A program made the translations under genes and the position numbers. DNA of 64,000 bases. Source: an uncultured Lachnospiraceae bacterium (GTDB lineage: Bacteria > Bacillota > Clostridia > Lachnospirales > Lachnospiraceae). The stretch spans positions 1,312-65,311 of the forward strand of contig CANQDW010000003.1 in the NCBI GenBank assembly GCA_947593975.1, in the 5' to 3' direction. The notes beneath the pieces were generated by a model. It ran no database searches. It had not been told where the DNA came from and saw only the letters and a list, made by a program, of their open reading frames with translations. This document shows positions 29,735 through 46,502 of the stretch, one piece after another. Each line of letters opens with the position of its first letter. The stretch's first letter is position 1.

Positions 29735-30391
29735 ATGAAAGGATATTTTTCTTCATCGACAATTAAGATCATTGCGGTTTTTTCAATGCTTATTGACCAT
29801 ATGGCAATGTGCCTGCATTTTTTTTGGAGCAAACCTGAGTTATATATGTTTATGAGGCAGATTGGAAGGCTGGCGTTTCCAATATTTTGTTTCTGCATAG
29901 TCCAGGGATATTTTCATACATCAGATATTAAAAAATATATTTTCAGGCTTTTTTTATTTGCGCTTATTTCGGAAGCGCCGTTTGATCTTGCAAGAGGAGC
30001 CGATAAGAGCAGTTGTTTTGGACATCAGAATGTATTTTTTACGCTGTGCCTGGGGCTTATCGCCGTATATATGATCGACAGCATGAGGGAAAGCACGGTT
30101 TTTCAGATTTATGTTATAATAGCCGCATGTATAATTGCTTATGCGCTCAAAGCCGATTATAACTTATTTGGGATCATACAGATCCTTGTGTTTTATTATT
30201 TCAGGGACAGGAGAAATTGCAGGATTGCCGGGATCATAATCGTTAATGTACTGTTAGGACAATCCTCCGGGATAGCGGCTCTTTTGTTTACCGAACTTTA
30301 TAATGGTAAGAGGGGGCTTAAGCTTAAATATACACTATATGCTTTTTATCCGGTTCATTTTATGTTATTATATTTTATAAATATGCTTTAA
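29735..30391 (+). CDS. TraX-family membrane protein
   Basis: MLIDH, IGRLAFPIF, ISEAPFDL, QNVFFTL, YNGKRG, FYPVH. Confidence 0.9.
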   Translation: MKGYFSSSTIKIIAVFSMLIDHMAMCLHFFWSKPELYMFMRQIGRLAFPIFCFCIVQGYFHTSDIKKYIFRLFLFALISEAPFDLARGADKSSCFGHQNVFFTLCLGLIAVYMIDSMRESTVFQIYVIIAACIIAYALKADYNLFGIIQILVFYYFRDRRNCRIAGIIIVNVLLGQSSGIAALLFTELYNGKRGLKLKYTLYAFYPVHFMLLYFINML

Positions 30392-30402
30392 GGAGTATTC
30401 TT

Positions 30403-31227: not shown

Positions 31228-31963
31228 GGCTTTTGAAGGACCCTTAGACCTTCTCCTTCATCTTATAGAAAAAAACCGCATTGATATATATGATATACCT
31301 ATTGTCATCATAACTGACCAGTATCTTGAATACATAGAAAAGATGCATACTGAAGACATGGATACTTTGAGCGAATTCCTTGTCATGGCGGCAACGCTTA
31401 TAAGGATCAAATCAAAGATGCTTCTGCCTCCGGATAAGACGGATGATGAAGAAGAAGCACAAGATCCGAGAACGGAACTTGTGGAAAGGCTTTTGGAATA
31501 TAAGATGTATAAGTATGCTTCATATGAGTTGAAAGACAGGCATATCGAAGCGGCAAAGATTTTATATAAAGCGCAGGATATACCCGCGGAAGTAGCGTCA
31601 TATAAGGAAGAAGTTAATGTAGAAGAGATCCTTGACGGGGTTACGATGAAGAAACTTCAGGATATATTCGAGATGATACTTAAGAAAAGGGAAGATAAGG
31701 TCGATCCGATACGGAGCAAGTTCGGAAAGATCGAAAAAGAAGAAGTAAGCCTGTCTGACAGGATTGCGGATATAAAAAGTTATGCAAAAGGAAGAAAAAA
31801 TATAAGTTTCAGGTCGCTTATAGAAAAGGGAAGAAGTATCAGATATATGATAGTTTCATTTCTGGCTGTGCTTGAGCTTATGAAAACGGGAGAGCTGTAT
31901 GCCGTTCAGGAAAATCCTTTTGACGATATTATCATATCCTATAGAGAACCGGAGGGTATTTGA
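31205..31963 (+). CDS. scpA: Segregation and condensation protein A
   Basis: FEGPLDLLLHLI...IDIYDIPI..ITDQYL. Confidence 0.97.
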   Translation: MGIPIKLEAFEGPLDLLLHLIEKNRIDIYDIPIVIITDQYLEYIEKMHTEDMDTLSEFLVMAATLIRIKSKMLLPPDKTDDEEEAQDPRTELVERLLEYKMYKYASYELKDRHIEAAKILYKAQDIPAEVASYKEEVNVEEILDGVTMKKLQDIFEMILKKREDKVDPIRSKFGKIEKEEVSLSDRIADIKSYAKGRKNISFRSLIEKGRSIRYMIVSFLAVLELMKTGELYAVQENPFDDIIISYREPEGI

Positions 31964-32553
31964 TGGAAAATTACAATGAAGATGAATTATGCGCAGCGTG
32001 CGAGGCGATATTATTTTCGATGGGGGACGCGGTAGAAGCGTCCCATATTGCGCAGGCGCTTGAAGTGGATAAGGATGCTATTAAAGATATAATGAATAAG
32101 ATGATGGATAAATATAAAGCATCCGACAGGGGTATCATGCTTATCGAACTCGACGGGGCGTATCAGCTGTGTACAAAAAAAGAGATGTATGATTATCTTG
32201 TAAAGATTGCGCATGTCCCGAAACCGAAGGAGCTTACGGATGTTATGCTTGAAACTTTATCGATAATAGCTTATAAGCAGCCTGTCACCAAACTTGAGAT
32301 TGAAAAGATAAGGGGCGTAAAATCCGACCATACGGTCAATAAGCTTATTGAATATAATCTTATATGCGAAGCCGGAAGAAAAGATGCGCCGGGAAGACCT
32401 ATACTTTTTGCGACGACTGAGGAGTTTTTAAGAAATTTCGGCATAGAATCCACGGAAGAACTTCCGGAACTTGACAGCGAAATGATAGAAGAATTTAAAA
32501 TGGAGGCGGAAGCTGAAGCAGACGGCGCAACGCAGCTTACGCTTGATATATAA
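31960..32553 (+). CDS. scpB: Segregation and condensation protein B
   Basis: ETLSIIAYKQPVT..EIEKIRGV, GRPILFATT. Confidence 0.97.
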   Translation: MMENYNEDELCAACEAILFSMGDAVEASHIAQALEVDKDAIKDIMNKMMDKYKASDRGIMLIELDGAYQLCTKKEMYDYLVKIAHVPKPKELTDVMLETLSIIAYKQPVTKLEIEKIRGVKSDHTVNKLIEYNLICEAGRKDAPGRPILFATTEEFLRNFGIESTEELPELDSEMIEEFKMEAEAEADGATQLTLDI

Positions 32554-32561
32554 TAAAGTGT

Positions 32562-32589
32562 TTGACATTTGGAGATAACCTGATATAAT
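32562..32589 (+). promoter_or_regulatory. Strong sigma-A promoter of the gltB-carB operon
   Basis: TTGACA-16 nt-TATAAT with extended TG. Confidence 0.85.
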
Positions 32590-32615
32590 AGTAGTGATAA
32601 TATTGTGGAATTAAC

Positions 32616-32684
32616 AGTGGAAATTAGCTGCAACGGGGCGGCAAGTTTCCACTTTAGTATGCCCAAAATTACCGTAAGGAGGCG
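32616..32684 (+). promoter_or_regulatory. Putative ANTAR-recognised dual hairpin leader RNA
   Basis: Hairpin 1 GCTGC-AACGGG-GCGGC within a 16-bp stem; hairpin 2 CGT-AAGGAG-GCG; both are hexaloops with A1 and G4. Confidence 0.6.
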
Positions 32685-32690
32685 TTTTAT

Positions 32691-35600
32691 ATGCAACAGA
32701 TTGAAGAAACAAAGCGGATGAGGAAAGGACTGTACGACCCGTCATTTGAACATGATAACTGCGGAATAGGCGCGATTGTCAATATTAAGGGCAAGAAGAC
32801 CCATGACACAGTTAAAAGGGCGCTCGATATAGTCTGTAATCTGGAACACCGCGCAGGAAAGGACGGAGAAGGAAAGACCGGGGACGGAGTTGGTATCATG
32901 CTCCAGATCGGCCACGAATTCTTCAAAAAAGAAGTTAAAAAGCTTGGTATAGAACTTGAAGGCGAAAGAGATTACGGAATAGGAATGTTTTTCTTCCCTC
33001 AGGATGAGCTTATCAGGCGTCAGGCGATGAAGATGTTTGAAACGATCGTCGAAAAAGAAGAAATGGAATTCTTAGGCTGGAGGGAAGTCCCGATATGTCC
33101 CCAGACACTGGGCAAAAAAGCTCTTTCCTGTATGCCGTACATAATGCAGGGATTTGTAAAACGCCCCAAAAAGGTAAACAAGGGACTTGATTTTGACCGC
33201 AAACTGTATATTGCGAGAAGGGTATTTGAACAGAGTAACGAAGATACATACGTTGTGTCTTTATCAAGCAGGACGATCGTATATAAAGGAATGTTTCTGG
33301 TATCGCAGCTTCGTTCCTTCTTTACCGATCTGCAGAATACGTCATATAAATCGGCAATAGCAATCGTGCATTCAAGGTTCAGCACCAATACCAATCCGAG
33401 CTGGCTGCGCGCGCACCCTAACAGATTTATTGTACATAACGGAGAGATAAATACGATCAGGGGCAACGTGGATAAGATGATAGCCCGTGAAGAAAATATG
33501 GAGTCGGAATACTTAAAAGGACAGCTCCATAAAGTACTTCCGGTAGTTAACGCAGAGGGCTCCGATTCGGCAATGCTCGATAATACGCTCGAGTTTCTCG
33601 TAATGAACGGAATGGATCTTCCGCTTGCGGTGATGATAACCATTCCTGAGCCATGGATGAATAATAAAGGCATACATCCGGCTAAGAAAGATTTTTATCA
33701 GTATTATGCGACGATGATGGAACCGTGGGACGGACCGGCGTCCATACTTTTCAGCGACGGCGACCTCATGGGAGCGGTGCTTGACAGAAACGGCCTCAGA
33801 CCGTCGAGATATTATATCACGTCAGATGACGAGCTTATCCTTTCTTCCGAAGTCGGAGTACTTGATATACCTGAAGAAAAGATAATTAAGAAAGACAGGT
33901 TAAGACCCGGGAAAATGCTTCTTGTGGATACGGTAGCGGGCTGCATAAGGGATGACGACGAGCTTAAGATGAAATATGCCACAAGGCAGCCGTACGGAGA
34001 ATGGCTGGACGGCAATCTTGTCATGCTTAAAGACCTCCATATACCTAACCACAGGGTTGAAACCTATACTGACGAACAGAGGACACAGCTTCAGAAAGCT
34101 TTCGGATATTCATATGAAGAGATTAAAAACACAATACTTCCTATGGCGCAGAAAGGCTCCGAACCTATAGGCTCGATGGGAATCGACAGGCCGCTCAACG
34201 TGCTTGATAAGCAGCCTAATAACCTGTTTGGCTATTTTAAACAGCTCTTTGCGCAGGTTACGAACCCGCCGATCGATGCGATAAGGGAGAAGCTTATCAC
34301 GGCAACTTCGGTATATATAGGAACGGACGGAAACCTTCTTGAGGAAAAAGAAAGCAACTGCAACGTCCTTCGCGTAAATAATCCTATACTTACGAATACG
34401 GACCTCCTTAAGATCAAATATATGAATAAGGAAGGCTTTAAAGTAGCTGTAATACCGATCATCTATTATAAGAACACATCTCTTGAAAAAGCTATTGACA
34501 GACTTTATCTTGAGGCGGACAGGGCTTATAAAGACGGCGTTAATATCATAATACTTTCCGACAGGGGAGTTGACGAAAACCATGTGGCGATACCGTCGCT
34601 CCTTGCAGTTGCGGCAATGCAGCAGCATCTTGTAAAAACAAAGAAGCGTACTTCTGTAGCGATGATCCTTGAAAGCGCAGAGCCAAGGTCGGTCCATCAT
34701 TTCGCAACTATACTCGGATACGGAGCATGCGCCGTCAATCCTTATCTTGCGCAGGAGTCTATAAAAGAGCTTATTGACAAGAATCTTTTAGACAAAGACT
34801 ATTATGCGGCAGTTGACGATTATAACCTTGCGGTACTTGACGGTATCGTTAAGATAGCTTCCAAAATGGGAATATCAACGATACAGTCTTATCAGGGTTC
34901 TAAGATATTTGAAGCGATCGGCTTAAGCCAGAGCCTTATAGACAAATTCTTTACCCACACGGTAAGCAGGGTAGGCGGAATAGATATCATAGATATACAG
35001 AATCAGGTTGAAATGCTCCATACGAAAGCGTTTGACCCGCTCGGACTTAAGACGGACAATACGCTTGACAGCCTTGGAATACACAAAGTAAGAAGCGGAA
35101 AAGAAGATCATCTGTACAATCCGCAGACTATACATATGCTCCAGATGGCAACAAGACGCGGCGATTATGAGATGTTTAAGGAATATTCGAAGCTGATAAC
35201 TTCCGAAGACAGGCATGTGCATTTAAGGAGTATGCTTGGTTTTAGATGGGCGGATAAACCGATACCGCTTGATGAGGTTGAGAGCGTTGATGAGATCGTA
35301 AAAAGATTCAAGACCGGGGCAATGTCTTACGGTTCGATTTCGGAAGAAGCGCATGAATGTATGGCGATCGCTATGAACAGGCTTCACGGCAAATCAAACA
35401 GCGGTGAAGGCGGAGAAAGCCTCGAAAGACTTGAAACCGCAGGCACGGAAAACGACCGCTGCTCGGCGATCAAGCAGGTTGCTTCGGGAAGGTTCGGCGT
35501 CACATCAAAATATCTCGTGAGCGCAAAAGAGATACAGATAAAAAGGGCGCAGGGGGCAAAGCCGGGCGAGGGCGGACATCTTCCGGGAGGAAAAGTATAT

Positions 35601-37265
35601 CCGTGGATTGCAAAAACAAGACATTCAACTCCGGGCGTAAGCCTTATATCACCGCCTCCTCACCACGATATATATTCGATAGAGGATCTGGCGCAGCTTA
35701 TATATGATCTTAAGAACGCCAACCGCGATGCAAGGATATCGGTAAAACTTGTATCTGAGGCAGGCGTCGGAACGGTTGCGGCAGGCGTTGCAAAGGCAGG
35801 CGCAAGGGTAATCCTTATATCGGGACACGACGGAGGTACCGGAGCTGCGCCGAGAAGTTCGATATGCAACGCAGGTCTTCCGTGGGAACTTGGACTTGCG
35901 GAAACCCAGCAGACGCTTATAATGAACGGACTCCGTTCAAGGGTCGTTATCGAGACGGACGGAAAGCTTATGACAGGGCGCGACGTCCTTGTGGCAGCGC
36001 TTCTTGGAGCCGAAGAATACGGATTTGCCACAGCTCCGCTTGTAACTATGGGATGCGTAATGATGAGGGTATGTAACCTTGATACCTGTCCTGTAGGAGT
36101 TGCAACCCAGAATCCGGAACTTAGGAAGAGATTTACCGGAAAACCGGAATATGTTGAGAATTTCATGAGGTTTATTGCGATGGAACTTCGTGAATATATG
36201 GCAAAACTAGGAATAAAGACCGTTAATGAGCTTGTCGGACGCACAGACCTTCTTAAGATGAAAGATGACACAACACTTAATTCCATAAACGGAAAACACG
36301 GCGAAATAGACTTTTCCGGAATTTTGTGCGAAGAATATGCAAAAGAAACAGATAAAAAATCATCGCCTGACAATATATACGATTTTGAACTTGAGAAGAC
36401 CAAGGATATGAAAATCCTCATGAGCAGGTTTAAAAAAGCGTTTGAAAAAGGCGAGAAAGCGGAAACGGATGTGGAAGTAACCAATATAGACAGGACATTC
36501 GGAACTATATTCGGTTCGGAGATCACCAAGAAATACGGAGATACGCTTGAGGACGACACATATGTTGTCAATGCAAAAGGAGCCGGCGGACAGAGCTTCG
36601 GCGCATTTATACCGAAAGGAATGACAATAAAGCTCTGCGGCGACAGCAACGACTATTTCGGAAAAGGTCTTTCGGGCGGAAAACTTATTGTATACAAATC
36701 GCCTAAGAGCACGTTTAAGGCAGAAGAAAACATTATTATCGGAAATGTTGCGCTGTACGGAGCTACAAGCGGAAAGGCATTTATAAACGGTATAGCCGGC
36801 GAAAGATTCTGCGTGCGGAACTCAGGAGCTTACGCGGTCGTAGAGGGAATAGGAGACCACGGATGCGAGTATATGACCGGAGGACGCGTTGTAATACTCG
36901 GACGCACCGGAAAGAACTTTGCGGCAGGTATGAGCGGCGGTATCGCATATGTGCTTGATGAAGACAGAAATCTGTATCTTAAACTTAATAAAGAACTTGT
37001 TTCTATGGAGCCTGTAACGGATAAGTATGACGTCCTTGAGCTTAAGAACATGATCGAAGAGCATGTTTTGGCGACAGGTTCCGAAAGAGGAAAAGATATA
37101 CTTGATAACTTCTCGTCATATCTTCCTGAATTTAAAAAGATCATACCTCATGATTACCATGCAATGCTTCAGACTATCGCGCTCATGGAAGAAAGAGGAC
37201 TCAGTAACGAACAGTCGCAGATAGAAGCATTTTATGAGAATAAAAGAAGGAAAGAGAGGAATTAA
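32691..37265 (+). CDS. gltB: Glutamate synthase large subunit
   Basis: HDNCGIG N-terminal nucleophile, HSRFSTNT, HNGEINT, AQGAKPGEGG, ISPPPHHDIYSIEDL, 3Fe-4S CVMMRVCNLDTC. Confidence 0.98.
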   Translation: MQQIEETKRMRKGLYDPSFEHDNCGIGAIVNIKGKKTHDTVKRALDIVCNLEHRAGKDGEGKTGDGVGIMLQIGHEFFKKEVKKLGIELEGERDYGIGMFFFPQDELIRRQAMKMFETIVEKEEMEFLGWREVPICPQTLGKKALSCMPYIMQGFVKRPKKVNKGLDFDRKLYIARRVFEQSNEDTYVVSLSSRTIVYKGMFLVSQLRSFFTDLQNTSYKSAIAIVHSRFSTNTNPSWLRAHPNRFIVHNGEINTIRGNVDKMIAREENMESEYLKGQLHKVLPVVNAEGSDSAMLDNTLEFLVMNGMDLPLAVMITIPEPWMNNKGIHPAKKDFYQYYATMMEPWDGPASILFSDGDLMGAVLDRNGLRPSRYYITSDDELILSSEVGVLDIPEEKIIKKDRLRPGKMLLVDTVAGCIRDDDELKMKYATRQPYGEWLDGNLVMLKDLHIPNHRVETYTDEQRTQLQKAFGYSYEEIKNTILPMAQKGSEPIGSMGIDRPLNVLDKQPNNLFGYFKQLFAQVTNPPIDAIREKLITATSVYIGTDGNLLEEKESNCNVLRVNNPILTNTDLLKIKYMNKEGFKVAVIPIIYYKNTSLEKAIDRLYLEADRAYKDGVNIIILSDRGVDENHVAIPSLLAVAAMQQHLVKTKKRTSVAMILESAEPRSVHHFATILGYGACAVNPYLAQESIKELIDKNLLDKDYYAAVDDYNLAVLDGIVKIASKMGISTIQSYQGSKIFEAIGLSQSLIDKFFTHTVSRVGGIDIIDIQNQVEMLHTKAFDPLGLKTDNTLDSLGIHKVRSGKEDHLYNPQTIHMLQMATRRGDYEMFKEYSKLITSEDRHVHLRSMLGFRWADKPIPLDEVESVDEIVKRFKTGAMSYGSISEEAHECMAIAMNRLHGKSNSGEGGESLERLETAGTENDRCSAIKQVASGRFGVTSKYLVSAKEIQIKRAQGAKPGEGGHLPGGKVYPWIAKTRHSTPGVSLISPPPHHDIYSIEDLAQLIYDLKNANRDARISVKLVSEAGVGTVAAGVAKAGARVILISGHDGGTGAAPRSSICNAGLPWELGLAETQQTLIMNGLRSRVVIETDGKLMTGRDVLVAALLGAEEYGFATAPLVTMGCVMMRVCNLDTCPVGVATQNPELRKRFTGKPEYVENFMRFIAMELREYMAKLGIKTVNELVGRTDLLKMKDDTTLNSINGKHGEIDFSGILCEEYAKETDKKSSPDNIYDFELEKTKDMKILMSRFKKAFEKGEKAETDVEVTNIDRTFGTIFGSEITKKYGDTLEDDTYVVNAKGAGGQSFGAFIPKGMTIKLCGDSNDYFGKGLSGGKLIVYKSPKSTFKAEENIIIGNVALYGATSGKAFINGIAGERFCVRNSGAYAVVEGIGDHGCEYMTGGRVVILGRTGKNFAAGMSGGIAYVLDEDRNLYLKLNKELVSMEPVTDKYDVLELKNMIEEHVLATGSERGKDILDNFSSYLPEFKKIIPHDYHAMLQTIALMEERGLSNEQSQIEAFYENKRRKERN

Positions 37266-37267
37266 TT

Positions 37268-38719
37268 ATGGGTAAGCCTACAGGTTTTATGGAATATAAC
37301 AGAGTAAATAATGTTGCTACAGCTCCTTTAAAACGAATCAAGGATTTTGATGAATTCCATATTCCTCTTTCAGATGAGGAAAGACGTCTTCAGGGTGCAA
37401 GATGTATGGACTGCGGCGTTCCGTTCTGCCAGTCGGGAATGATGATAGGCGGTATGGTTTCAGGATGCCCGCTTAATAATCTGATTCCCGAATGGAATGA
37501 CCTTCTGTACAAGGGTAATATGGAACAGGCGCTGACACGTCTGTTAAAGACTAATAATTTCCCGGAGTTTACTTCCAGGGTATGTCCCGCGCCGTGCGAA
37601 GCGGCATGTACATGCGGGCTTAACGATTCGCCTGTTACGATAAAGGAAAATGAAAACGGGATCATTGAATATGCTTATGAAAACGATCTTATAAAAGCGG
37701 AACCTCCTAAAGTAAGGACGGGAAAAACCGTTGCGATAGTAGGTTCCGGAGCTTCAGGGATTGCCTGCGCCGACCAGCTTAACAAGAGAGGGCACAGCGT
37801 AACGGTCTATGAGCGTGAAGACAGGCCGGGCGGACTGCTTATGTACGGAATCCCGAATATGAAACTTGAAAAAGAAGTCATTGAAAGACGTATCGGGATA
37901 ATGAAGGAAGAAGGAGTTGAATTCAAGGTCGGCGTAGATGTCGGAGTGGATATCAAAGCTTCCAAATTAGAGAAGGATTACGACTGCGTTGTTTTGTGCT
38001 GCGGAGCATCCAATCCTAGGAATATAAAAGCGCCGGGAAGAGATTCAAAAGGGATATATTTTGCAGTGGATTATCTTAAGAGGGTAACAAAAAATCTTCT
38101 TGACCCTTCGTTTAAAGACTATTACAATGCAAAAGGGAAGCATGTAGTTGTAATAGGCGGAGGCGATACCGGAAACGACTGCGTGGGAACTGTCATAAGA
38201 CAAGGATGTGCATCGGTAACGCAGCTTGAGATGATGCCAAAGGCGCCCGACTGCCGTACGGAGAACAACCCGTGGCCCGAATGGCCGAAGGTGTGCAAAA
38301 CCGATTACGGTCAGGAAGAGGCAATAGCCGTATTCGGACACGATCCGAGAATATATGAAACTACGGTAAAAGAATTTGTCGCCGATGAAAAAGGCAATCT
38401 GAAAGCTGTAAATACGGTTATGCTTGACCGCTCGTTTAAAGAAGTCCCCGGCAGCGAAAAACAGCTCCCGGCAGATATCGTCCTTATAGCGGCAGGTTTC
38501 CTTGGCGCGCAGGAATATGTCTATAAAGATTTTAAGGTTGAAGTTACCGAAAGGACGAATATAAAGACTGATGCCGGAAGTTTTAAGACTAATGTCGAAA
38601 ATGTATTTGCGGCAGGAGATATGCACAGGGGACAGTCTTTGATCGTATGGGCCATAAGAGAAGGACGCGACGCCGCAAGACAGGTAGACAGTTATCTTAT
38701 GGGATATACAAACCTGTAA
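37268..38719 (+). CDS. gltD: Glutamate synthase small subunit
   Basis: RCMDCGVPFC, GGGDTGNDC, AGDMHRGQSLIVWAI. Confidence 0.97.
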   Translation: MGKPTGFMEYNRVNNVATAPLKRIKDFDEFHIPLSDEERRLQGARCMDCGVPFCQSGMMIGGMVSGCPLNNLIPEWNDLLYKGNMEQALTRLLKTNNFPEFTSRVCPAPCEAACTCGLNDSPVTIKENENGIIEYAYENDLIKAEPPKVRTGKTVAIVGSGASGIACADQLNKRGHSVTVYEREDRPGGLLMYGIPNMKLEKEVIERRIGIMKEEGVEFKVGVDVGVDIKASKLEKDYDCVVLCCGASNPRNIKAPGRDSKGIYFAVDYLKRVTKNLLDPSFKDYYNAKGKHVVVIGGGDTGNDCVGTVIRQGCASVTQLEMMPKAPDCRTENNPWPEWPKVCKTDYGQEEAIAVFGHDPRIYETTVKEFVADEKGNLKAVNTVMLDRSFKEVPGSEKQLPADIVLIAAGFLGAQEYVYKDFKVEVTERTNIKTDAGSFKTNVENVFAAGDMHRGQSLIVWAIREGRDAARQVDSYLMGYTNL

Positions 38720-38748
38720 ACAGCACTGTATTTTGAAAGGAGTTTTAT

Positions 38749-40035
38749 ATGGTAAAGTATACTAAGCAGGATATCATATCCATGGTAGAGGAAGAAGACG
38801 TTGAATTTATAAGGCTTCAGTTTGTAGATATCTACGGAATATTAAAAAATGTCGCGGTAACGGCAAGCCAGTTAAACCGTGTGCTTAATAATGAGCTTAC
38901 GTTCGACTGCGGGGCGATTGAAGGTTTTGAAAGCAAAAATCTGTCCAAACTTATCCTTTCTCCGGACATAGATACCTTTGCCATATTCCCGTGGCGTCCG
39001 CAGAGCGGAAGAGTTGCGCGGTTCATATGCGACATTAAGAATACGGACGGTACTCCATATGAAAACGATTCAAGATATGTGCTGAAGAAAGTGCTTAAGC
39101 AGGCGGCGAAAGAAGGATATTATTTTAATATCGGTCCCGAATGTGAGTTTTTTCTGTTTGACGTAGATGATGAGGGCAATCCGACCACGGACACAAAAGA
39201 AAAAGGCGGATACTTTGATGTCGGACCTCTTGACAAGGGCGAAAATGCAAGACGCGATATGGTGCTGTCGTTATCTGATATGGGATTTGAGATTGAGACT
39301 TCATACCATTCGGACGAAGTGGCGCAGCATCAGATCGATTTTAAATATGATTCGCCGCTGCATACGGCAGATAATATAATGACGTTTAAACTGGCAGTGC
39401 ATACGGTTGCAAGAAGGCACGGGCTCCATGCAACCTTTATGCCGAAGCCGAGAACTGAACTTAACGGTTCGGGTATGCAGACGCATATTACCGTATATAA
39501 AGACGGCAACAACATATTTGCGGGAGCGTCCGACGGGACATGCAGCAGCGAGGGATACGCTTTTATGGCAGGTCTTTTGGCGCATCTTCCGGGAATGACC
39601 CTTATAAATAATACCGTAATAAATTCATATAAAAGATTATATGGTTTATTTGATAAGATGATCGCATATGATTGTTCCGAGGGCGAACGTTACGCGCTCT
39701 TACAGATGACGGATATAGGAAGGATGGGGGCAGGGCTTGTGCTGAGAAGTCCCGACGCAGCATGCAATCCTTATCTTATGCTTGCGGTTGTTTTATCGGC
39801 AGGCTTAGACGGGATAAAGAACGACATGAAAATTGATGTAAACAGCGAGTATGTCAGCAATCTTCCCAGAACACTTGAGGATGCCATAAAGGCGTATCAG
39901 GCGGACGGGTTCATACAGAATGTTTTAGGCAGTTTTATGTCGGATAAACTTGTCAGCCGCAAAAAGAAGGAATGGAAAGAATATTGCAGGCAGGTTTCTT
40001 CATGGGAAATAGACCAGTATTTGGACAAAATTTGA
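38749..40035 (+). CDS. Type I glutamine synthetase homologue with degenerate active site (probable pseudo-enzyme)
   Basis: Intact 428-aa ORF with GS-I scaffold (IRLQFVD, VARFICD, GPECEFFLF, GGYFD, HGLHATFMPKP, NGSG), but the HHE, QHE, GMH and RxExR motifs are altered. Confidence 0.85.
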   Translation: MVKYTKQDIISMVEEEDVEFIRLQFVDIYGILKNVAVTASQLNRVLNNELTFDCGAIEGFESKNLSKLILSPDIDTFAIFPWRPQSGRVARFICDIKNTDGTPYENDSRYVLKKVLKQAAKEGYYFNIGPECEFFLFDVDDEGNPTTDTKEKGGYFDVGPLDKGENARRDMVLSLSDMGFEIETSYHSDEVAQHQIDFKYDSPLHTADNIMTFKLAVHTVARRHGLHATFMPKPRTELNGSGMQTHITVYKDGNNIFAGASDGTCSSEGYAFMAGLLAHLPGMTLINNTVINSYKRLYGLFDKMIAYDCSEGERYALLQMTDIGRMGAGLVLRSPDAACNPYLMLAVVLSAGLDGIKNDMKIDVNSEYVSNLPRTLEDAIKAYQADGFIQNVLGSFMSDKLVSRKKKEWKEYCRQVSSWEIDQYLDKI

Positions 40036-40060
40036 TTTTTTTGCGCAGCAGAAGGAGGGA

Positions 40061-40603
40061 TTGTACTTGTTAAGCATAATAGTTGCATTCCCTAAGCTTG
40101 ATGATGCTAATAAAATCAAAAACATACTTGTAAAAAACGGATATGAAGTTGCGCTAAGCTGCAATAATGCGGCGCAGATAATAAATATGTGCAGTAAGCT
40201 CGACGAAGGGATGATCATATGCGGCTATAAGCTTGCCGACATGATTTATACCGAGCTTTTCGGTTATCTGCCCGCCGGTTTTTCAATGATTCTTTTGGCA
40301 TCGGCAAAGAAACTTGCTGACTGTTACGAGCCCGATATTGTAAAGGTTGCAATGCCTTTAAAAATAAATGAACTTGTAAAATCGATAGACAGCGTGTATC
40401 ATGCTTATAAGAGACAAAAGAAGTTTAACAGGCCTAAGGAAAGAACGGAAGAAGAAAAAAAGATAATAGACGATGCCAAGACTCTTCTTATCTGCAGTCA
40501 TGGGATGACAGAAGAAGAAGCGCACAGATATATTCAGAAGATCAGTATGGACAGCGGCAATTCAATGGTTGAAACGGCAGAGATGATACTGATTTTAAAA
40601 TAG
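40061..40603 (+). CDS. ANTAR-domain RNA-binding regulator with pseudo-receiver domain (NitR/AmiR-like)
   Basis: C-terminal AK..L...GMTEEEAHRYIQKISMD; the receiver reads MIICGYKLADM at the phospho-Asp position. Confidence 0.88.
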   Translation: MYLLSIIVAFPKLDDANKIKNILVKNGYEVALSCNNAAQIINMCSKLDEGMIICGYKLADMIYTELFGYLPAGFSMILLASAKKLADCYEPDIVKVAMPLKINELVKSIDSVYHAYKRQKKFNRPKERTEEEKKIIDDAKTLLICSHGMTEEEAHRYIQKISMDSGNSMVETAEMILILK

Positions 40604-40622
40604 TAGATCAGGAGGGTAATAA

Positions 40623-41723
40623 ATGAAAACATATCTTATCCTTGAAAACGGAGCGGTATTTGAAGGAGAAAGCATAGGAGCCGCGCGGGAAGTAATAAGC
40701 GAAATAGTATTTAATACCTCAATGACGGGATATCTTGAAGTGCTTACCGATCCAAGCTACGCGGGACAGGCGGTAGTCATGACATATCCGCTTATCGGAA
40801 ACTACGGTATCTGCAGAAAAGATATGGAATCACAAAAACCCTGGCCGGATGCGTTTATAGTCAGGGAATTATCACGTTTGGCAAGCAATTTCAGGAATGA
40901 ATGCAGCATACAGGAATTCCTTAAGGAATATGATATACCCGGAATAGCCGGCATCGATACGCGCGCGCTGACTAAGATACTCAGGGAAAACGGAACGATG
41001 AACGGTATGATAACGCAGAATAAAGACAGGGACATTAACGAACTGAAACGCATGATATCTTCATATTCCGTTAAGGGAGTCGTAAAAAGAGTATCGTGTG
41101 ATAAAGTAAGGGAATATGTTCCGGGAGACCTTGATACGGATGCCAAGACCATAGTAAAAAGGCATGTGGCCGTTTTGGATGTCGGAACTAAAAATAATAT
41201 TATAAGAAGTTTAATAAAAAGAGGCTGCAGGGTTACGGTATTTCCGTGCGGCGCCAAAGCCTCTGATATTATAGACAGCAGGCCGGACGGTATTATGATT
41301 ACCAACGGACCGGGAGACCCGAAGGAATGTCAGGATGTCATAGCTGAGATAAAGAAGCTGTATGACACAGACATTCCTATTTTTGCGATATGTCTCGGCC
41401 ATCAGCTTATGGCTCTTGCAGCCGGAGCGGATACGCATAAAATGAAATACGGGCACAGGGGCGCCAATCATCCGGTAAAGGATCTTTTCGGAGGAAAGGT
41501 TTATATCTCGTCACAAAACCACGGATATGTAGTAGATGAAAACAGCCTTGATAAAAATATATGCGTGCCGGCGTTTATCAATGTAAATGATAAGACGATA
41601 GAAGGGCTTAAATATACCGGAAAGAATATATTTACGGTACAGTTCCACCCTGAGGCCTGCGCCGGACCGAAAGACTCGGACGAATTGTTCGACCGTTTTA
41701 TAAACATGATGGAGGTAAGATAG
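40623..41723 (+). CDS. carA: Carbamoyl-phosphate synthase small subunit
   Basis: FNTSMTGY, DPSY, GICLGHQ-type AICLGHQ, SQNHGY, QFHPE. Confidence 0.98.
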   Translation: MKTYLILENGAVFEGESIGAAREVISEIVFNTSMTGYLEVLTDPSYAGQAVVMTYPLIGNYGICRKDMESQKPWPDAFIVRELSRLASNFRNECSIQEFLKEYDIPGIAGIDTRALTKILRENGTMNGMITQNKDRDINELKRMISSYSVKGVVKRVSCDKVREYVPGDLDTDAKTIVKRHVAVLDVGTKNNIIRSLIKRGCRVTVFPCGAKASDIIDSRPDGIMITNGPGDPKECQDVIAEIKKLYDTDIPIFAICLGHQLMALAAGADTHKMKYGHRGANHPVKDLFGGKVYISSQNHGYVVDENSLDKNICVPAFINVNDKTIEGLKYTGKNIFTVQFHPEACAGPKDSDELFDRFINMMEVR

Positions 41724-41724
41724 G

Positions 41725-44700
41725 ATGCCAAAATTAGATTTCATCAAAAAGGTGCTTGTAATTGGTTCAGGACCTATTGTCATAGGACAGGCTGCGGAAT
41801 TTGATTATGCCGGCACACAGGCGTGCCGTTCGCTCAAAGAAGAAGGGGTTACGGTTGTGCTCATCAATTCCAATCCGGCAACGATAATGACTGATAAAGA
41901 TATTGCGGATATGGTATATATTGAGCCTCTTACCCCTGAAATGGTTAAAAAAGTCATTCTTAAAGAAAAACCGGACAGCATCCTTCCCACATTGGGAGGA
42001 CAAGCTGCCCTTAATATTGCAATGGAGCTTGACGAGTCGGGATTCCTTAAGGAAAACGGCGTAACGCTTATAGGAACGACCCACGCGACGATAAAAAAAG
42101 CGGAAGACCGTCTTGAATTCAAAAAGACCATGGAAAAAATAGGAGAACCGTGCGCCGCAAGCGAGGTAGTAAATACCGTAAAAGCAGCGGTAGAGTTCGC
42201 CGATAAGATAGGTTATCCCGTAGTAATAAGACCCGCGTATACGCTTGGAGGAAGCGGCGGCGGAATAGCGGATAACGAGGAAGAACTGCGCGAGATATGT
42301 GAAAACGGACTCAGGCTCAGCAGGGTTTCGCAATGTCTTATCGAAAGGTGCATTGCCGGCTGGAAAGAGATCGAATACGAAGTAATGCGCGACGGAAACG
42401 GAAACAGCATTACCGTATGTAATATGGAAAACCTTGATCCAGTAGGGGTACATACCGGAGACAGTATCGTAGTTGCGCCTTCGCAGACGCTTTCCGATAA
42501 AGAATACCAGATGTTAAGGAGTTCCGCGCTTAATATCATAAATGAGCTTAAGATAACCGGAGGCTGCAACGTGCAGTTTGCGCTTAAGCCGGATTCATTT
42601 GAATACTGCGTGATAGAAGTCAATCCAAGGGTAAGCCGCTCTTCGGCGCTTGCGTCCAAAGCCACGGGTTATCCTATTGCCAAAGTCGCTGCAAAGATAG
42701 CTCTCGGATATACGCTTGACGAGATACCTAACGCAATTACAAAAAGGACTTACGCAAGTTTTGAACCCGCGCTTGACTATGTCGTTGTTAAGATACCGAG
42801 GCTTCCGTTTGATAAATTTATACATGCGAGCAGGTCGCTTACGACGCAGATGAAAGCAACCGGTGAAGTTATGAGCATATGCACGAATTTTGAAGGCGCG
42901 CTGATGAAAGCCCTCCGCTCGCTTGAACAGCATATAGACAGCCTTTATACGGACAGTTATTCCGGACTTTGTGACGATGATATCCTCGAAAAGCTGAAAA
43001 AGATAGACGACAGGAGGATATTTGTCATAGCGGAGGCGATAAGAAGGAATATATCATATGAGACGATACATGACATTACAAAGATAGACGAATGGTTCAT
43101 AGACAAGATCGCTATTCTCGTTGAAATGGAAAAAAGACTCATGAACGAGGAGCTTACCGCAAATCTTCTCCGCGAGGCAAAAAGGATAGAGTTTCCCGAT
43201 AATGTTATCGCAGAACTTACCGGCAGGGATATAGCTGACATTAAGGATATGCGTAAAAAATATAACATTACCGCCGCGTTTAAGATAGTGGATACATGCG
43301 CAGCGGAATTTGAAGCTTCGACTCCTTATTATTACAGCTGTTTCGGAAGCGAAAGCGAGATAACAAAAAGAAGCCCGCATAAAAAAATAATGGTGCTTGG
43401 TTCGGGCCCTATTAGGATAGGCCAGGGAATTGAATTTGATTACTGTTCGGTACACAGCGTATGGTCGCTTGCCGAAAACGGATATGAAACTATTATTGTA
43501 AATAACAACCCTGAAACAGTGAGCACTGATTTTGATGTGGCTGACAGGCTGTATTTTGAACCGCTTACTCCCGAAGACGTCGAAAATATAGTCGATATAG
43601 AAAAGCCTGACGGAGCCGTAGTGCAGTTTGGAGGACAGACTGCGATCAAACTTACCGAGGCGCTTATGAAGATGGGCGTAAAGATACTGGGGACCAGCGC
43701 TGAGAACGTCGATGCCGCCGAAGACAGGGAGCTTTTTGATGAGATACTTGAAAAGTGCAGGATACCAAGACCGGCGGGAAAAACGGTATTTACAACCGAA
43801 GAGGCGCTTAAAGCGGCGGAAGAGCTTGGATATCCAGTGCTTGTAAGGCCTTCTTATGTTCTTGGCGGACAGGGTATGCAGATTGCCATATCAGACGACG
43901 ATATAATAGAATTCATGGAAGTTATCAACCGCTATGAACAGGAACATCCGATACTGGTCGATAAATATCTTATGGGAAAAGAAGTTGAAGTAGACGCCGT
44001 ATGCGACGGTGAAAATATACTCATACCGGGCATAATGGAGCATGTGGAGAGGGCAGGCATACATTCGGGCGACAGCATTTCGGTGTATCCGGCGCAGAGC
44101 CTTTCGGATAAAGTTACCGACACGCTTGTTGAATACACGGAAAAACTTGCAAGGTCGCTTCATGTAATAGGCCTTATAAATATCCAGTTCATAGTATTTA
44201 ACGAAGAGGTCTACGTAATAGAAGTCAATCCGCGTTCCAGCCGTACCGTGCCTTATATAAGCAAGGTTACGGGAATACCTATCGTAAAGCTGGCGTCGCA
44301 GGTTATACTCGGAAAGAATATAAGAGAGCTCGGATACAATCCGGGACTTCAGAAAAAATCAGATTATATAGCAGTAAAGATGCCTGTATTTTCATTTGAA
44401 AAGCTTAGAGGAGCAGAGATAAGCCTCGGGCCCGAGATGAAATCCACTGGCGAATGCCTTGGAATAGCGGGAGATTTTAATGAGGCGCTGTATAAAGCGT
44501 TCCTTGGCGCAGGCATAAATCTTCCGAAATACAGAAGGATGATCCTTACCGTAAGGGATGAAGATAAAGAAGAAAGCATAAACGTGGCAAAAAGGTTCAT
44601 AGATCTCGGATATGAGATATATGCTACGAGAGGAACGGCAAAATACCTTAAGGCGAATGGCGTTTGCGTCGTAGGCGTAAATAAGATCGAACAGGAATCG

Positions 44701-44919
44701 CCTACTTTGCTTGATCTTATACTCGGCCACAGGATAGACCTTGTAATAGACATACCAAGGCAGGGCGAACATTCAAAGGACGGATTCCTTATAAGAAGGC
44801 TGTCCATAGAAACAGGCGTTACCTGCATCACATCGCTTGATACGGCGAACGCGCTTCTTACAAGCCTTGAGAATGCTGACAAATCGCATTTATCGGTACT
44901 TGATATTGCAAAATTATAA
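41725..44919 (+). CDS. carB: Carbamoyl-phosphate synthase large subunit
   Basis: GSGPIVIGQAAEFDY, two ATP-grasp repeats, EVNPRVSRSS, MGS domain. Confidence 0.98.
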   Translation: MPKLDFIKKVLVIGSGPIVIGQAAEFDYAGTQACRSLKEEGVTVVLINSNPATIMTDKDIADMVYIEPLTPEMVKKVILKEKPDSILPTLGGQAALNIAMELDESGFLKENGVTLIGTTHATIKKAEDRLEFKKTMEKIGEPCAASEVVNTVKAAVEFADKIGYPVVIRPAYTLGGSGGGIADNEEELREICENGLRLSRVSQCLIERCIAGWKEIEYEVMRDGNGNSITVCNMENLDPVGVHTGDSIVVAPSQTLSDKEYQMLRSSALNIINELKITGGCNVQFALKPDSFEYCVIEVNPRVSRSSALASKATGYPIAKVAAKIALGYTLDEIPNAITKRTYASFEPALDYVVVKIPRLPFDKFIHASRSLTTQMKATGEVMSICTNFEGALMKALRSLEQHIDSLYTDSYSGLCDDDILEKLKKIDDRRIFVIAEAIRRNISYETIHDITKIDEWFIDKIAILVEMEKRLMNEELTANLLREAKRIEFPDNVIAELTGRDIADIKDMRKKYNITAAFKIVDTCAAEFEASTPYYYSCFGSESEITKRSPHKKIMVLGSGPIRIGQGIEFDYCSVHSVWSLAENGYETIIVNNNPETVSTDFDVADRLYFEPLTPEDVENIVDIEKPDGAVVQFGGQTAIKLTEALMKMGVKILGTSAENVDAAEDRELFDEILEKCRIPRPAGKTVFTTEEALKAAEELGYPVLVRPSYVLGGQGMQIAISDDDIIEFMEVINRYEQEHPILVDKYLMGKEVEVDAVCDGENILIPGIMEHVERAGIHSGDSISVYPAQSLSDKVTDTLVEYTEKLARSLHVIGLINIQFIVFNEEVYVIEVNPRSSRTVPYISKVTGIPIVKLASQVILGKNIRELGYNPGLQKKSDYIAVKMPVFSFEKLRGAEISLGPEMKSTGECLGIAGDFNEALYKAFLGAGINLPKYRRMILTVRDEDKEESINVAKRFIDLGYEIYATRGTAKYLKANGVCVVGVNKIEQESPTLLDLILGHRIDLVIDIPRQGEHSKDGFLIRRLSIETGVTCITSLDTANALLTSLENADKSHLSVLDIAKL

Positions 44920-44975
44920 AAAATCGTTATAATATTTTTATAATATTATAAAAAGTAAAGGGGAGAGAGTTTGTT

Positions 44976-46502
44976 ATGAGACACAATAGATCATTAACAT
45001 TTATTGCAGCCGTATTGTCGGTTTGTCTTTTGGCAGGAACGGTTTTTACGGCTTCGCCCGTATCGTCGGCCGCAAGCAAAAAGGCAGTAACTATCAAACT
45101 TAACAAAAAAACGATAACGATCAAAAAGGGCGAGAGCTTCAAGTTAAAGGCAAAGACTGCGCCGGGAGGCTGCAAGGTAACATGGAAATCGTCAAAGAAG
45201 AAGATCGCTTCGGTTTCAAAGAAAGGCAAAGTCACGGCAAAATCCGCAGGAAAGGCAAAGATAACAGCAGCGGCTTCATATAAGGTGCGAGGCAAAAAAT
45301 ATTCCGCAAAAGCCGTATGCAAAGTTACGGTAAAGCCTGCGGGAAACGATAATACGGGAACGCCGGCGCCGTCAGAAACGGCTGCGGCGACGAACGATCC
45401 GCAGAAAGGAAATGATAATGTGGAAAATACTGTACCTGTAACGGATATAAATGTAAACGGTCCGATAAACCTTAAAGTTGGCGAGACGGGAAAGATACAG
45501 CCGGATATCCTTCCAAAAGAAGCAGGGCTTTCAGACTGCAATATATCTAATACAAAGGATTATGTAGCTTCGGTCGGGGCTGACGGTACCGTTACGGCAA
45601 AGTATCCGGGAATAACCGTAGTTACGCTTGCCGCAAAATCAAACGCCGATATCAAATGCAGCTTCAGGATCCAGGTTACGGATGATTTTGCGCCGCCGGA
45701 AGGTTTTGATAAAGAAAATCCCGATATCGCGCACGGTACGCTTGAAGGCATTAACTATCCTTCCGATTATAGGGATGGAGGAACTGCGCATGCCCTTGCA
45801 TGGTTCCCGCCGGGATATGATACGAATAAAAAGTACAACCTTCTTTTCTGCCTGCATGGCGGAATGGATAACGAATACTACTGGACAGGTGATAAAGGCG
45901 GAACAAACGACGGATGTTCCGGAGATAATGTGCTCGATAATCTGTATGCAGAAGGCCTTATGGAAGATACTATCGTAGTATTTACAAGCGGAGTCATAAA
46001 CTATGACGCCGGAAAAGATTATCCGAACCTTAAAAACGATCCGCCTGTCGGAAGCGACTGGATCAATCACTATCTGTTGGAATATGAGATACTTAACAAC
46101 CTGCTTCCTTATATGAGACAGGAATATCCTGTAATGGACGGCGCTGAGCATACCGCGATATGCGGCTTGTCTATGGGCTGCGGACAGTCCTATGAGATCG
46201 GATTTAAGAATCCGGATGTGTTTGATTATATAGGAAGTTTCTCGGCAGGCCCATTCCAGGGAGCCAACCAGCAGTTTGTGCTGAGCGAAGAAGATGCGGA
46301 AGTAATGAATAATACAGTTAAGCTGTTCTTCTTTATGACAGGTGAAAATGACCATATGAGAGACGACAGTATGCGCAACTTCATAAAAACATGCGACGGA
46401 TACGGACTTAACCATGTATTTTATGAGGTTCCGAAGTACGGACATGAGGACGCGTGCTGGGACAGATGCCTGTATGCATTTATGAAATATGCATTTAAAT
46501 AA
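44976..46502 (+). CDS. Secreted CE1-like esterase (feruloyl/acetyl xylan esterase type): signal peptide, Lys-rich Big_2, linker, Ig-like, alpha/beta hydrolase
   Basis: LHGG, GLSMG (Ser), GEND (Asp), GHE (His). Confidence 0.82.
   Translation: MRHNRSLTFIAAVLSVCLLAGTVFTASPVSSAASKKAVTIKLNKKTITIKKGESFKLKAKTAPGGCKVTWKSSKKKIASVSKKGKVTAKSAGKAKITAAASYKVRGKKYSAKAVCKVTVKPAGNDNTGTPAPSETAAATNDPQKGNDNVENTVPVTDINVNGPINLKVGETGKIQPDILPKEAGLSDCNISNTKDYVASVGADGTVTAKYPGITVVTLAAKSNADIKCSFRIQVTDDFAPPEGFDKENPDIAHGTLEGINYPSDYRDGGTAHALAWFPPGYDTNKKYNLLFCLHGGMDNEYYWTGDKGGTNDGCSGDNVLDNLYAEGLMEDTIVVFTSGVINYDAGKDYPNLKNDPPVGSDWINHYLLEYEILNNLLPYMRQEYPVMDGAEHTAICGLSMGCGQSYEIGFKNPDVFDYIGSFSAGPFQGANQQFVLSEEDAEVMNNTVKLFFFMTGENDHMRDDSMRNFIKTCDGYGLNHVFYEVPKYGHEDACWDRCLYAFMKYAFK

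Follow-up and report, generated by a model that had tools for sequence, protein, structure and literature searches.

A degenerate glutamine synthetase next to an Asp-less ANTAR protein: a candidate nitrogen sensor and regulator in a Lachnospiraceae gltBD-carAB operon

What might a glutamine synthetase (GS) fold with a degraded active site be doing between glutamate synthase (GOGAT) genes and the gene of an ANTAR antiterminator? We addressed this question at a locus in a 64-kb stretch of Lachnospiraceae DNA (the window), where Pfam and NCBIfam assign functions to six co-directional ORFs in the order gltB-gltD-pseudo-GS-ANTAR-carA-carB (Table 1). A sequence-only reading had described this order behind a consensus promoter, and both were recovered; the promoter is the sole 12/12 extended -10 site in the 15 kb scanned (31500-46500), and relatives, too, show a promoter in the corresponding place. 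The gaps of 2, 29, 19 and 1 nt given in that reading also stand, while its 25 nt between the pseudo-GS and ANTAR genes is likelier 31 nt, because the ANTAR start is probably a TTG at 40067, located 8 nt past a GGAGG, and homologues open with MLSII. Kinase genes, said to be absent next to the operon, were indeed not found in the Pfam-annotated flanks within ~8 kb on either side. The operon is best explained as a member of a widespread Lachnospiraceae layout, scpAB followed by promoter-leader-gltB-gltD-pseudo-GS-nitR-carA-carB, with an ancient glnA-nitR pair as its core.

Table 1. Features of the operon and its leader, in window coordinates.
Feature	Position	Strand	Evidence or remark
Sigma-70 promoter, TTGACA-16 nt-TG-n-TATAAT (TGaTATAAT)	32562..32589	+	12/12 match, extended -10
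5' leader, one long imperfect stem-loop	32597..32671	+	core stem 32617-32652, then UUUAGUAU
Apical hairpin GCUGC-AACGGG-GCGGC	32627..32642	+	A1/G4 hexaloop, C-G closing pair; resembles P1 of NitR-type leaders
CGU-AAGGAG-GCG, 'second hairpin' of the sequence-only reading	32673..32684	+	Shine-Dalgarno region of gltB
gltB, glutamate synthase large subunit	32691..37265	+	NF008730, 1641 bits; Pfam GATase_2, Glu_syn_central, Glu_synthase, GXGXG
gltD, glutamate synthase small subunit	37268..38719	+	TIGR01317, 683 bits
Pseudo-GS, GSI-alpha fold with degenerate active site	38749..40035	+	E = 1e-118, full-length to PDB GS structures
NitR-type ANTAR antiterminator, pseudo-receiver	40067..40603 (longest ORF from 40061)	+	PF03861, E = 2e-15
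carA, carbamoyl-phosphate synthase small (glutaminase) subunit	40623..41723	+	NF009475, 534 bits
carB, carbamoyl-phosphate synthase large subunit	41725..44919	+	NF003671, 1554 bits

Aligned to Bacillus subtilis GS (4s0r), whose numbering we use, the pseudo-GS retains the full-length fold and carries the replacements E196Q, H245Q, E333V, E304D (in the flap), R321Q and R62S. The first five bear out the earlier claim that metal and catalytic residues are missing, and the losses amount to three metal ligands, the flap Glu and one ATP-binding Arg; E189 is displaced, and E132 and E134 are retained. The E flap, which holds the catalytic Glu304, and the D50' loop are remodelled, and the amino-acid-binding residues G241, R298, R335 and D53 are intact in the lineage. 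Its TIGR00653 score of 357.8 falls short of the cut-off (429.15), as do its scores for every NCBIfam equivalog, and judging from its residues GS activity is very improbable. The protein is nevertheless maintained: purifying selection on it is strong, with a dN/dS of 0.019-0.11 (0.019 against the related locus L087) next to 0.03-0.10 for gltD and 0.055-0.15 for carA.

The pseudo-GS sits in a large degenerate clade, represented by 112 sequences in which two or more of the five metal ligands are gone, and the ligands lost differ between subclades. Position 196 holds H, Q, C, G or V, position 245 F, M, I, Y or Q, and position 333 V, A, T or I; the flap Glu has become N, D, G or L, and S249 is often Phe. 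By contrast, 182 of the 428 alignment columns reach a conservation of 90% or higher, G241, R298, R335, D53 and H187 being invariant or nearly so. Altered GS-fold ligases have precedents in the gamma-glutamyl-polyamine and gamma-glutamyl-ethanolamine synthetases and in glutamate-methylamine ligase, and the pseudo-GS could accordingly be imagined as just another of the operon's metabolic genes, encoding a ligase of changed chemistry or metal use. The preserved fold would suit such an enzyme, as would the usual retention of E132, E134, R298, R316, R335 and G241 and a clade-wide conserved Glu ('SxE'), located two positions C-terminal to the E189 column, that could stand in for E189. To our knowledge, however, known GS-like ligases retain both metal sites, whereas here three ligand positions hold chemically unrelated residues in different subclades. 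This scatter, repeated at the flap and at S249, indicates relaxed active-site constraint and not a new catalytic constellation. With the scores beneath all equivalog cut-offs also weighing against it, we consider a surviving ligase improbable.

In the ANTAR protein, the phospho-Asp column of the receiver holds G, as the sequence-only reading had noticed, and the acidic pair (F-P) and the Lys (M) are gone too. Its AlphaFold2 model (pLDDT 88) has EutV, Rv1626 and AmiR as top structural matches. Among 78 GS-adjacent ANTAR proteins from Clostridia, the Asp column is G in 57, S in eight, A in six and D in just two, and by these residues the pseudo-receiver of NitR-type ANTAR proteins is shown to be non-phosphorylatable. 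Combining a GS-seeded genome scan with an ANTAR-seeded metagenome scan, we found the Asp-less ANTAR gene directly 3' of a GS gene in 137 of 140 testable loci, most partner GS in this glnA-nitR family being catalytically intact. Given that an Asp-less receiver and GS adjacency are traits of the whole family, the proposal of a new circuit does not hold: the circuit is already known as the glnA-nitR module, and the novelty lies in the degeneration of its GS.

Pairing with the ANTAR gene outlasts this degeneration. The pseudo-GS pair is present in many gut bacteria, and an Asp-less ANTAR gene comes after the pseudo-GS gene in every case, including those without gltBD and carAB. On the other side of the argument, the two proteins could be functionally independent, their adjacency reflecting mere membership of one nitrogen regulon; the ANTAR protein would then answer to a PII/GlnK protein, to a distant modifier acting independently of kinases or to a metabolite that it binds directly, and the pseudo-GS would have another non-catalytic job, e.g., regulating or scaffolding GOGAT, carbamoyl-phosphate synthase (CPSase) or a real type III GS. 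Genomic linkage hints at a function connected with these glutamine consumers, with carAB directly downstream of a degenerate GS in 29 of 30 testable loci but of an intact GS in only 1 of 95, and gltBD frequently upstream of the former; moreover, canonical glnA-nitR pairs have their own NitR leader, and co-regulation alone accounts for part of the adjacency. Yet pairs stripped of both gltBD and carAB survive in three lineages (L084-86, L092-93 and L097), the GS-then-ANTAR order with a short gap recurs in ~92 clusters at 90% identity across Lachnospiraceae, Oscillospiraceae and Clostridium, and neither a PII gene nor another candidate partner was found in the Pfam-annotated flanks (8 kb on each side in the window, and the loci of close relatives). 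We therefore judge independence of the two proteins rather unlikely.

Canonical NitR-type leaders combine a P1 hairpin (consensus gaaC-AAGGGC-Guuc) with an overlapping terminator and precede canonical glnA-nitR in ~30 loci. The GS-ANTAR adjacency of canonical pairs could be no more than a sign of autoregulation of the shared operon. A canonical leader also precedes the type-B gltB-gltD-pseudo-GS-ANTAR-carAB operon (L001, L178 and L180), and another lies before the type III GS gene glnN, 4 kb from the pseudo-GS locus in L015, which agrees with the earlier suggestion that a GSIII may supply real GS activity.

The leader in the window is different. It folds with a minimum free energy of -30.5 kcal/mol (z = -2.8) and looks like a terminator or attenuator, although the U-tract after its stem (UUUAGUAU) is weak; the homologous hairpin in L081 is followed by nine U and is a clear intrinsic terminator. 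Rfam gave no match to it, and neither did a covariance model built for the canonical leaders of the family. The hairpin at the apex of the long stem is, on either strand of the window, the only C-AANG[AG]N-G match whose stem has 4 bp or more, where ~0.002 such matches are expected per 100-nt leader; single A1/G4 hexaloop hairpins of any kind are common by chance, with ~60 in the window. The stem is kept in L087 and L084/L086 with compensatory changes (U-A to U.G and U.G to U-A), and the apical loop reads AAUGGG in L084 and L087 but is lost as a hexaloop in L081. The second of the two A1/G4 hairpins in the sequence-only reading was rejected as an ANTAR element, having a stem of just 3 bp and being absent in L084 and L081, so that one hairpin stands and a dual-hairpin substrate does not. 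A leader comparable to that of the window was not found in L092, L096, L097 and the type-D clade.

It is quite conceivable, though we lean against it, that the apical hexaloop is fortuitous, its stem-loop acting as a constitutive attenuator or stabilising the 5' end, with the ANTAR protein restricted to acting in trans on canonical leaders at other genomic loci, such as that before glnN. The unmatched covariance model, the transcript 5' end pairing into the extended stem and the L081 hairpin fit this, and L015 shows that trans targets exist. However, the loop conforms to the family P1 consensus, closing C-G pair included, and both are kept in three of four lineages, and the type-B sister clade has a canonical P1 and terminator at the homologous position. 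We infer that the RNA target in the window would be a P1-like apical hexaloop on a terminator-like hairpin, a non-canonical geometry.

By analogy with AmiC-AmiR, NasS-NasT and GS-TnrA/GlnR, the best reading of the pseudo-GS would be that of a regulatory partner of the ANTAR protein, the pair probably forming a candidate nitrogen sensor and regulator. In the full account, which we favour tentatively and with slightly less than even confidence, GS or pseudo-GS would be the signal-sensing protein partner, keeping the ANTAR dimer inactive under ample nitrogen and letting it go under nitrogen scarcity. The freed protein would bind hexaloop hairpins of nascent leaders and suppress their terminators, raising GOGAT, CPSase, the pseudo-GS-ANTAR pair and probably also the type III GS encoded elsewhere. 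The GS-ANTAR adjacency, the pseudo-receiver, the scattered active-site losses under purifying selection, the pairs that stand alone, the canonical leaders of sister clades and the P1-like hexaloop with its conservation in relatives count in favour of this account. Against it count the placement of the hexaloop on a terminator-like stem, with no alternative structure excluding that stem, the weak U-tract, the unmatched covariance model and the relatives that lack the hexaloop or a comparable leader. Arg62 reportedly has a role in glutamine feedback of B. subtilis GS, in 2013 work attributed to Murray et al. With Arg62 lost and both the E flap and the D50' loop reshaped in the pseudo-GS, a read-out of glutamine in the B. 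subtilis manner cannot be assumed.

The closest known system is the glnA-nitR-gltAB cluster of Clostridium saccharobutylicum NCP262, in which, as summarised in PMC6316151 (citing Stutz et al., 2007), NitR is an ANTAR antiterminator. That paper reports antitermination of GS/GOGAT genes by NitR when nitrogen limits, under a control described as incompletely understood (PMC6316151). Both loci have a GS-family gene followed by an ANTAR gene with linked GOGAT genes, and the C. saccharobutylicum cluster is controlled by antitermination at leader terminators; its ANTAR protein was outside our set of 78. Its glnA encodes an active GS, whereas the window has a pseudo-GS without three metal ligands and the flap Glu, carAB downstream, the order gltBD-pseudo-GS-ANTAR and a leader without the canonical P1/terminator arrangement. 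Clostridium thermocellum has the same neighbourhood of ANTAR regulator, type I-alpha GS and GOGAT (Clo1313_2030-2036), compared here by gene neighbourhood and with no carAB linkage reported. By the title of Rydzak et al. (2017), deletion of its type I GS is reported to 'deregulate nitrogen metabolism', in the presence of three GSIII genes (PMC4676874; PMC9888227).

EutV/EutW share with the window the ANTAR output domain and coiled coil, and the A1/G4 hexaloop as recognition element (Ramesh et al., 2012); nitrogen-metabolism regulons of ANTAR proteins take in synthase genes for glutamate, glutamine and arginine, with substrates known 5' of them (PMC3369931). EutV, however, is phosphorylated by a kinase, and in the canonical ANTAR substrate two hairpins are present, the second of which, P2, overlaps the terminator (Ramesh et al., 2012), in contrast to the single hexaloop at the apex of a terminator-like stem in the window. 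In AmiC-AmiR of Pseudomonas aeruginosa and NasS-NasT of Paracoccus denitrificans, an adjoining ligand-binding protein sequesters an ANTAR protein with a pseudo-receiver (PMC3369931; PMC3795266), non-phosphorylatable as in the window, where the AlphaFold2 model matches AmiR. Their partner is a sensor of periplasmic-binding-protein fold, whereas the candidate here has a dodecamer-forming GS fold and would form the corresponding complex. Finally, B. subtilis GSI-alpha passes nitrogen status to regulators by direct binding via the E flap and D50' loop, which make most contacts with TnrA (PMC4335299). That GS is catalytically active and signals by its glutamine-bound state to TnrA and GlnR, which are MerR-type DNA binders, while the pseudo-GS lacks Arg62 and the flap Glu and has an RNA-binding antiterminator as its neighbour.

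Domain and family models established the identities of all six genes of the operon, and the promoter proposed in the sequence-only reading of this DNA was recovered in full (see table). The intergenic gaps given there (2, 29, 25, 19 and 1 nt) stood, except that GS*, the degenerate glutamine synthetase (GS), and the ANTAR gene are more likely separated by 31 nt than by 25 nt, with the ANTAR gene starting at TTG 40067. This TTG, 8 nt past GGAGG, is by sequence comparison most likely the true start, with ANTAR homologues and the database gene call starting with MLSII (178 aa); the longest ORF would begin at 40061, a start that is unlikely to be used. Genes for TraX, a metallophosphoesterase, ScpA and ScpB lie upstream of the operon, and genes for a Big_2 esterase and DegV lie downstream. 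No histidine kinase was found among these flanking genes, and no second GS or ANTAR gene was found anywhere in the 64 kb window, the sequence of which was found in rabbit-gut metagenome runs, in DNA runs only.

Features of the window, with positions on the whole stretch
Feature	Position	Strand	Details
tRNA gene	863–934	+	Sole Rfam match at gathering score in the window
TraX/metallophosphoesterase-ScpA-ScpB	29735–32553		Syntenic block preceding the operon
Promoter	32562–32589		TTGACA-16-TGaTATAAT, 12/12 match
Leader core stem	32617–32652		Followed by UUUAGUAU
Leader apical hairpin	32627–32642		GCUGC-AACGGG-GCGGC
Six co-directional ORFs	32691–44919	+	Pfam and NCBIfam identities
gltB		+	NF008730, 1641 bits
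gltD		+	TIGR01317, 683 bits
GS-family protein (GS*)	38749–40035	+	PF03951 and PF00120
Shine-Dalgarno (SD) sequence of the ANTAR gene	40050–40058	+	AGAAGGAGG
ANTAR gene	start most likely 40067	+	PF03861 only, E = 2e-15
carA		+	NF009475
carB		+	NF003671

GS* aligned over residues 1–426 to B. subtilis GS and other solved GSI-alpha structures (E = 1e-118) and has the full Gln-synt_N and Gln-synt_C fold. In B. subtilis numbering, its n1/n2 metal ligand set (E132, E134, E189, E196, H245, and E333) is incomplete, with E196Q, H245Q, and E333V and a Ser in the E189 column, while all six ligands are present in the canonical control proteins P0044, P0066, and P0087 and in 71 canonical GS sequences. The catalytic flap Glu304 is replaced by Asp (E304D), the ATP/phosphate Arg321 by Gln (R321Q), and Arg62 of the D50' loop, contributed by the adjacent subunit (Arg62'), by Ser (R62S). 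These substitutions bear out the earlier claim that GS* lacks metal and catalytic residues. Residual enzymatic activity in a protein with such losses, in which E132, E134, D53, G241, R298, R316, and R335 are retained, is improbable. GS* scored 357.8 bits against the TIGR00653 cut-off of 429.15 and fell under every NCBIfam equivalog cut-off, and a 76%-identical relative from Lachnospiraceae/Lachnoclostridium MAGs bears the NCBI name "glutamine synthetase family protein". Metabolic reconstructions of gut Lachnospiraceae would be misled by the label "glutamine synthetase" that databases give to the degenerate proteins. When the window was compared with its closest relative, dN/dS came to 0.019 (GS*), 0.029 (gltD), 0.055 (carA), and 0.098 (ANTAR gene), and values for GS* over more distant pairs were 0.05–0.11. 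GS* is under purifying selection and, given these low values, is not a decaying gene.

Nearly all of the 120 proteins closest to GS* in a collection of 5.8 billion proteins were degenerate, by differing routes. The window clade (428 aa) has E196Q, Gln, Tyr, or His at H245, R321Q, and E333V; a large clade (435–437 aa) has His or Cys at E196, Phe or Met at H245, S249F, E304N, and Val, Ala, or Thr at E333; two further clades carry E134R with E196G, and E132K, E196V, E304L, and E333V, respectively; and intermediates lack the flap Glu and Arg62 but retain the metal ligands. Across the 112 sequences missing at least two of five metal ligands, conservation was at least 90% in 182 of 428 columns; G241, R298, R335, D53, and H187 were invariant or nearly so, and the ligand columns were scattered. 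Because the ligand columns are scattered while pocket residues stay fixed, we read this pattern as relaxed constraint on catalysis, with the fold and the amino-acid pocket both preserved, which also speaks against a new enzymatic chemistry for GS*. In a large clade frequent in gut metagenomes of humans and animals, GS has thus lost catalysis while changing no faster than the true enzymes encoded alongside, which is new here and argues for a non-catalytic, probably regulatory role of the GS fold. The pseudo-GS clade represents a natural separation-of-function experiment. Among the relatives' loci compared with the window, the GS gene 5' of ANTAR in L137 (4710–5888) was in three fragments, which may be an assembly error or a real pseudogene, and carB of L081 (13058–16263) and gltB of L180 (3799–8366) were each split into two ORFs, which may be assembly errors or pseudogenes.

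The window ANTAR protein has a pseudo-receiver, in which the phospho-acceptor Asp is replaced by G55, the acidic pair by F-P, and the Lys by M98. Among 78 GS-adjacent ANTAR proteins, the Asp column held Gly in 57, Ser in 8, and Ala in 6, the acidic pair was F/L-P, and the Lys was replaced by Met. The AF2 model of the protein (pLDDT 88) consists of a (beta-alpha)5 receiver-like domain, a long helix, and a three-helix ANTAR bundle, with EutV, Rv1626, and AmiR as its best Foldseek matches.

In a genome scan seeded with GS*, which yielded 80 loci from different species, the ANTAR gene was immediately 3' of GS on the same strand in 77. A separate scan of metagenomes, started from the ANTAR protein, gave another 80 loci, and every one with sufficient upstream sequence had a GS gene directly upstream. 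Of the 140 testable loci pooled from both scans, 137 had the pair (92 clusters at 90% identity), and the partner GS was mostly fully canonical. That a GS-family gene precedes this regulator in essentially every case is new here. The Asp-less, kinase-less ANTAR next to a GS that had been pointed out in the window is accordingly real, but it is a family-wide trait and not special to this locus.

Degenerate and canonical loci differed in their downstream genes: carA-carB was directly 3' of ANTAR in 29 of 30 testable degenerate-GS loci vs. 1 of 95 loci with canonical GS (L001–L080, L098–L177), and gltB-gltD was often upstream of the degenerate GS. This link between GS degeneration and carAB, as judged from gene order, is new and unexplained. 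In the closest relatives of the window (L081–83, L087–89), the whole six-gene operon follows scpAB, as it does in the distant type-B clade, another GS*-ANTAR clade, from human gut samples (L178–L180). The order TraX/metallophosphoesterase-ScpA-ScpB followed by the operon is shared by the window, L081, L087, L178, and L180, and only GS*-ANTAR occupies this site in L084 and L092; a search for ScpA/ScpB over 160 loci returned no matches and is uninformative on positional orthology. In L092 (8647–8661; GCA_000621985.1), GS* starts just 13 nt past scpB, so the pair has no leader of its own there. GS* could act independently of ANTAR, in a non-catalytic role linked to carbamoyl-phosphate synthase (CPSase) or GOGAT, with which the gene associations above are consistent. 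Three relatives of the window clade (L084–86, L092–93, and L097) encode GS*-ANTAR alone, at the same or another site; because they keep only these two genes, the invariant core, as far as gene order indicates, is GS*-ANTAR and does not include the biosynthetic genes, and we consider an ANTAR-independent role unlikely.

The predicted fold of the window leader is a single extended stem-loop (−30.5 kcal/mol, z = −2.8). Its stem is kept, with compensatory and wobble changes and the apical loop AAUGGG, in L087 and L084/86, and L081 has a homologous hairpin with a different loop and a run of nine U behind it, clearly an intrinsic terminator; the leader is thus conserved and terminator-like. No homologous hairpin was found in L096, L097, or the type-D clade of GS*-ANTAR loci (L038, L043, L051). 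Upstream of GS* and the operon promoter in L051 (about 9660–9900), a unit of ~95 nt that holds a terminator-like hairpin and a T-run is repeated in ~2.5 tandem copies.

The dual A1/G4 hairpin leader of the sequence-only reading did not survive: there is one good hairpin, and the second, a 3-bp stem round the SD, 30 nt away and not conserved, was rejected. The canonical substrate consists of two adjacent A1/G4 hexaloop hairpins (Ramesh et al., 2012), which the window leader does not have; its one hexaloop hairpin caps the terminator-like stem, and we found in this leader no other pairing that would make a terminator mutually exclusive with a second hairpin. An antiterminator formed via the 5' repeat GUGGAAUU was also rejected, as it could replace the 5' arm and would leave the 3' arm unfreed. 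The apical hairpin was the sole match in 64 kb to the loop signature of P1, the NitR leader hairpin (C-AANGRN-G, stem of at least 4 bp), for which about 0.002 chance matches are expected per 100-nt leader. Rfam yielded nothing relevant for the whole window at gathering score or for the leader alone at E ≤ 10, an exact-pattern search for the window leader in metagenome contigs found none, and a local search for further leader copies within the window returned chance level only. A generic scan for dual A1/G4 hexaloops gave 128 matches on the + strand of 1.3 Mb, mostly noise; the only one in the window (19133–19168, +) lies inside an ORF (18753–19664) and was judged a chance match.

From about 36 canonical glnA-nitR loci we derived a family leader and its covariance model, R1. 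In this canonical leader, the loop and 3' arm of P1 (gaaC-AAGGGC-Guuc) double as the 5' arm of a terminator that ends in GCCCUUUU, and a second hexaloop, AAUGCC, is frequent. R1 matched about 30 glnA leaders at canonical loci and, with weak scores yet precisely at the expected position, the gltB leaders in sister operons of type B (L001, L178, L180). A NitR-type leader (R1, 40 bits) also precedes the gene of a 706-aa type III GS, glnN, in L015 (7571–11146, − strand), a locus of a genome that also carries a pseudo-GS-ANTAR-carAB operon; an amino-acid-kinase (carbamate-kinase-like) gene follows glnN. R1 had no match in the window at E ≤ 10, as would be expected if the window leader were unrelated to the ANTAR protein, a real possibility that we nevertheless tend to doubt, the apical loop being a rare match to the P1 signature. 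We read the leader of the window clade as rearranged, with a P1-like hexaloop atop a terminator-like stem, and as a candidate ANTAR target.

Under the proposed mechanism, GS or GS* would be the protein partner controlling the ANTAR protein, which under this control would suppress termination in the leaders of nitrogen-assimilation operons. The original observation was partly confirmed, and its interpretation, that GS* is a sensor gating the ANTAR protein, is partly supported. We tentatively propose, as a possibility held with some reserve, that GS-fold proteins are dedicated receptors of NitR-type ANTAR antiterminators across Clostridia, and that in a mostly gut Lachnospiraceae clade this receptor has turned entirely into a pseudoenzyme gating the expression of GOGAT, CPSase, and type III GS. 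If true, no pseudo-glutamine-synthetase would have been known as a sensor before, nor any partner with an enzyme fold for an RNA-binding antiterminator, and the question of which signal NitR senses would be answered. GS* offers a clean system for studying such a partnership, free of confounding enzyme activity. Literature searches outside subscription journals, aimed at a GS-ANTAR interaction, a pseudo-GS, or the glnA-nitR system, turned up no description of the pseudo-GS clade, its carAB linkage, or a GS-ANTAR protein partnership, and only the known NitR and mentions of C. thermocellum were found.

Antitermination of GS/GOGAT genes by NitR-type regulators has been on record since the 1990s–2000s, and the glnA-nitR type of circuit is not new. 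In C. saccharobutylicum, NitR reportedly acts as an antiterminator of GS/GOGAT genes when nitrogen is limiting; its mechanism, including how this kinase-less regulator perceives nitrogen, is described as incompletely understood (PMC6316151). Control of glutamate, glutamine, and arginine synthesis genes by ANTAR proteins is likewise known (PMC3369931). The glnA-nitR genes of C. saccharobutylicum have the same GS-then-ANTAR arrangement as the pooled loci here, whereas in AmiC-AmiR and NasS-NasT the sensor partner has a periplasmic-binding-protein fold and the ANTAR neighbour here has a GS fold. Arg62 of GS reportedly has a role in glutamine feedback, a finding ascribed to Murray and colleagues in 2013. 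Compared with the B. subtilis GS-TnrA system, in which the E flap and D50' loop supply most GS contacts with TnrA (PMC4335299), GS* has lost Arg62, and both its E flap, the site of the catalytic Glu304 (Asp in GS*), and its D50' loop are remodelled. These changes disfavour a simple B. subtilis-like glutamine read-out, and the E flap and D50' loop of GS* may have changed to suit a different partner instead.
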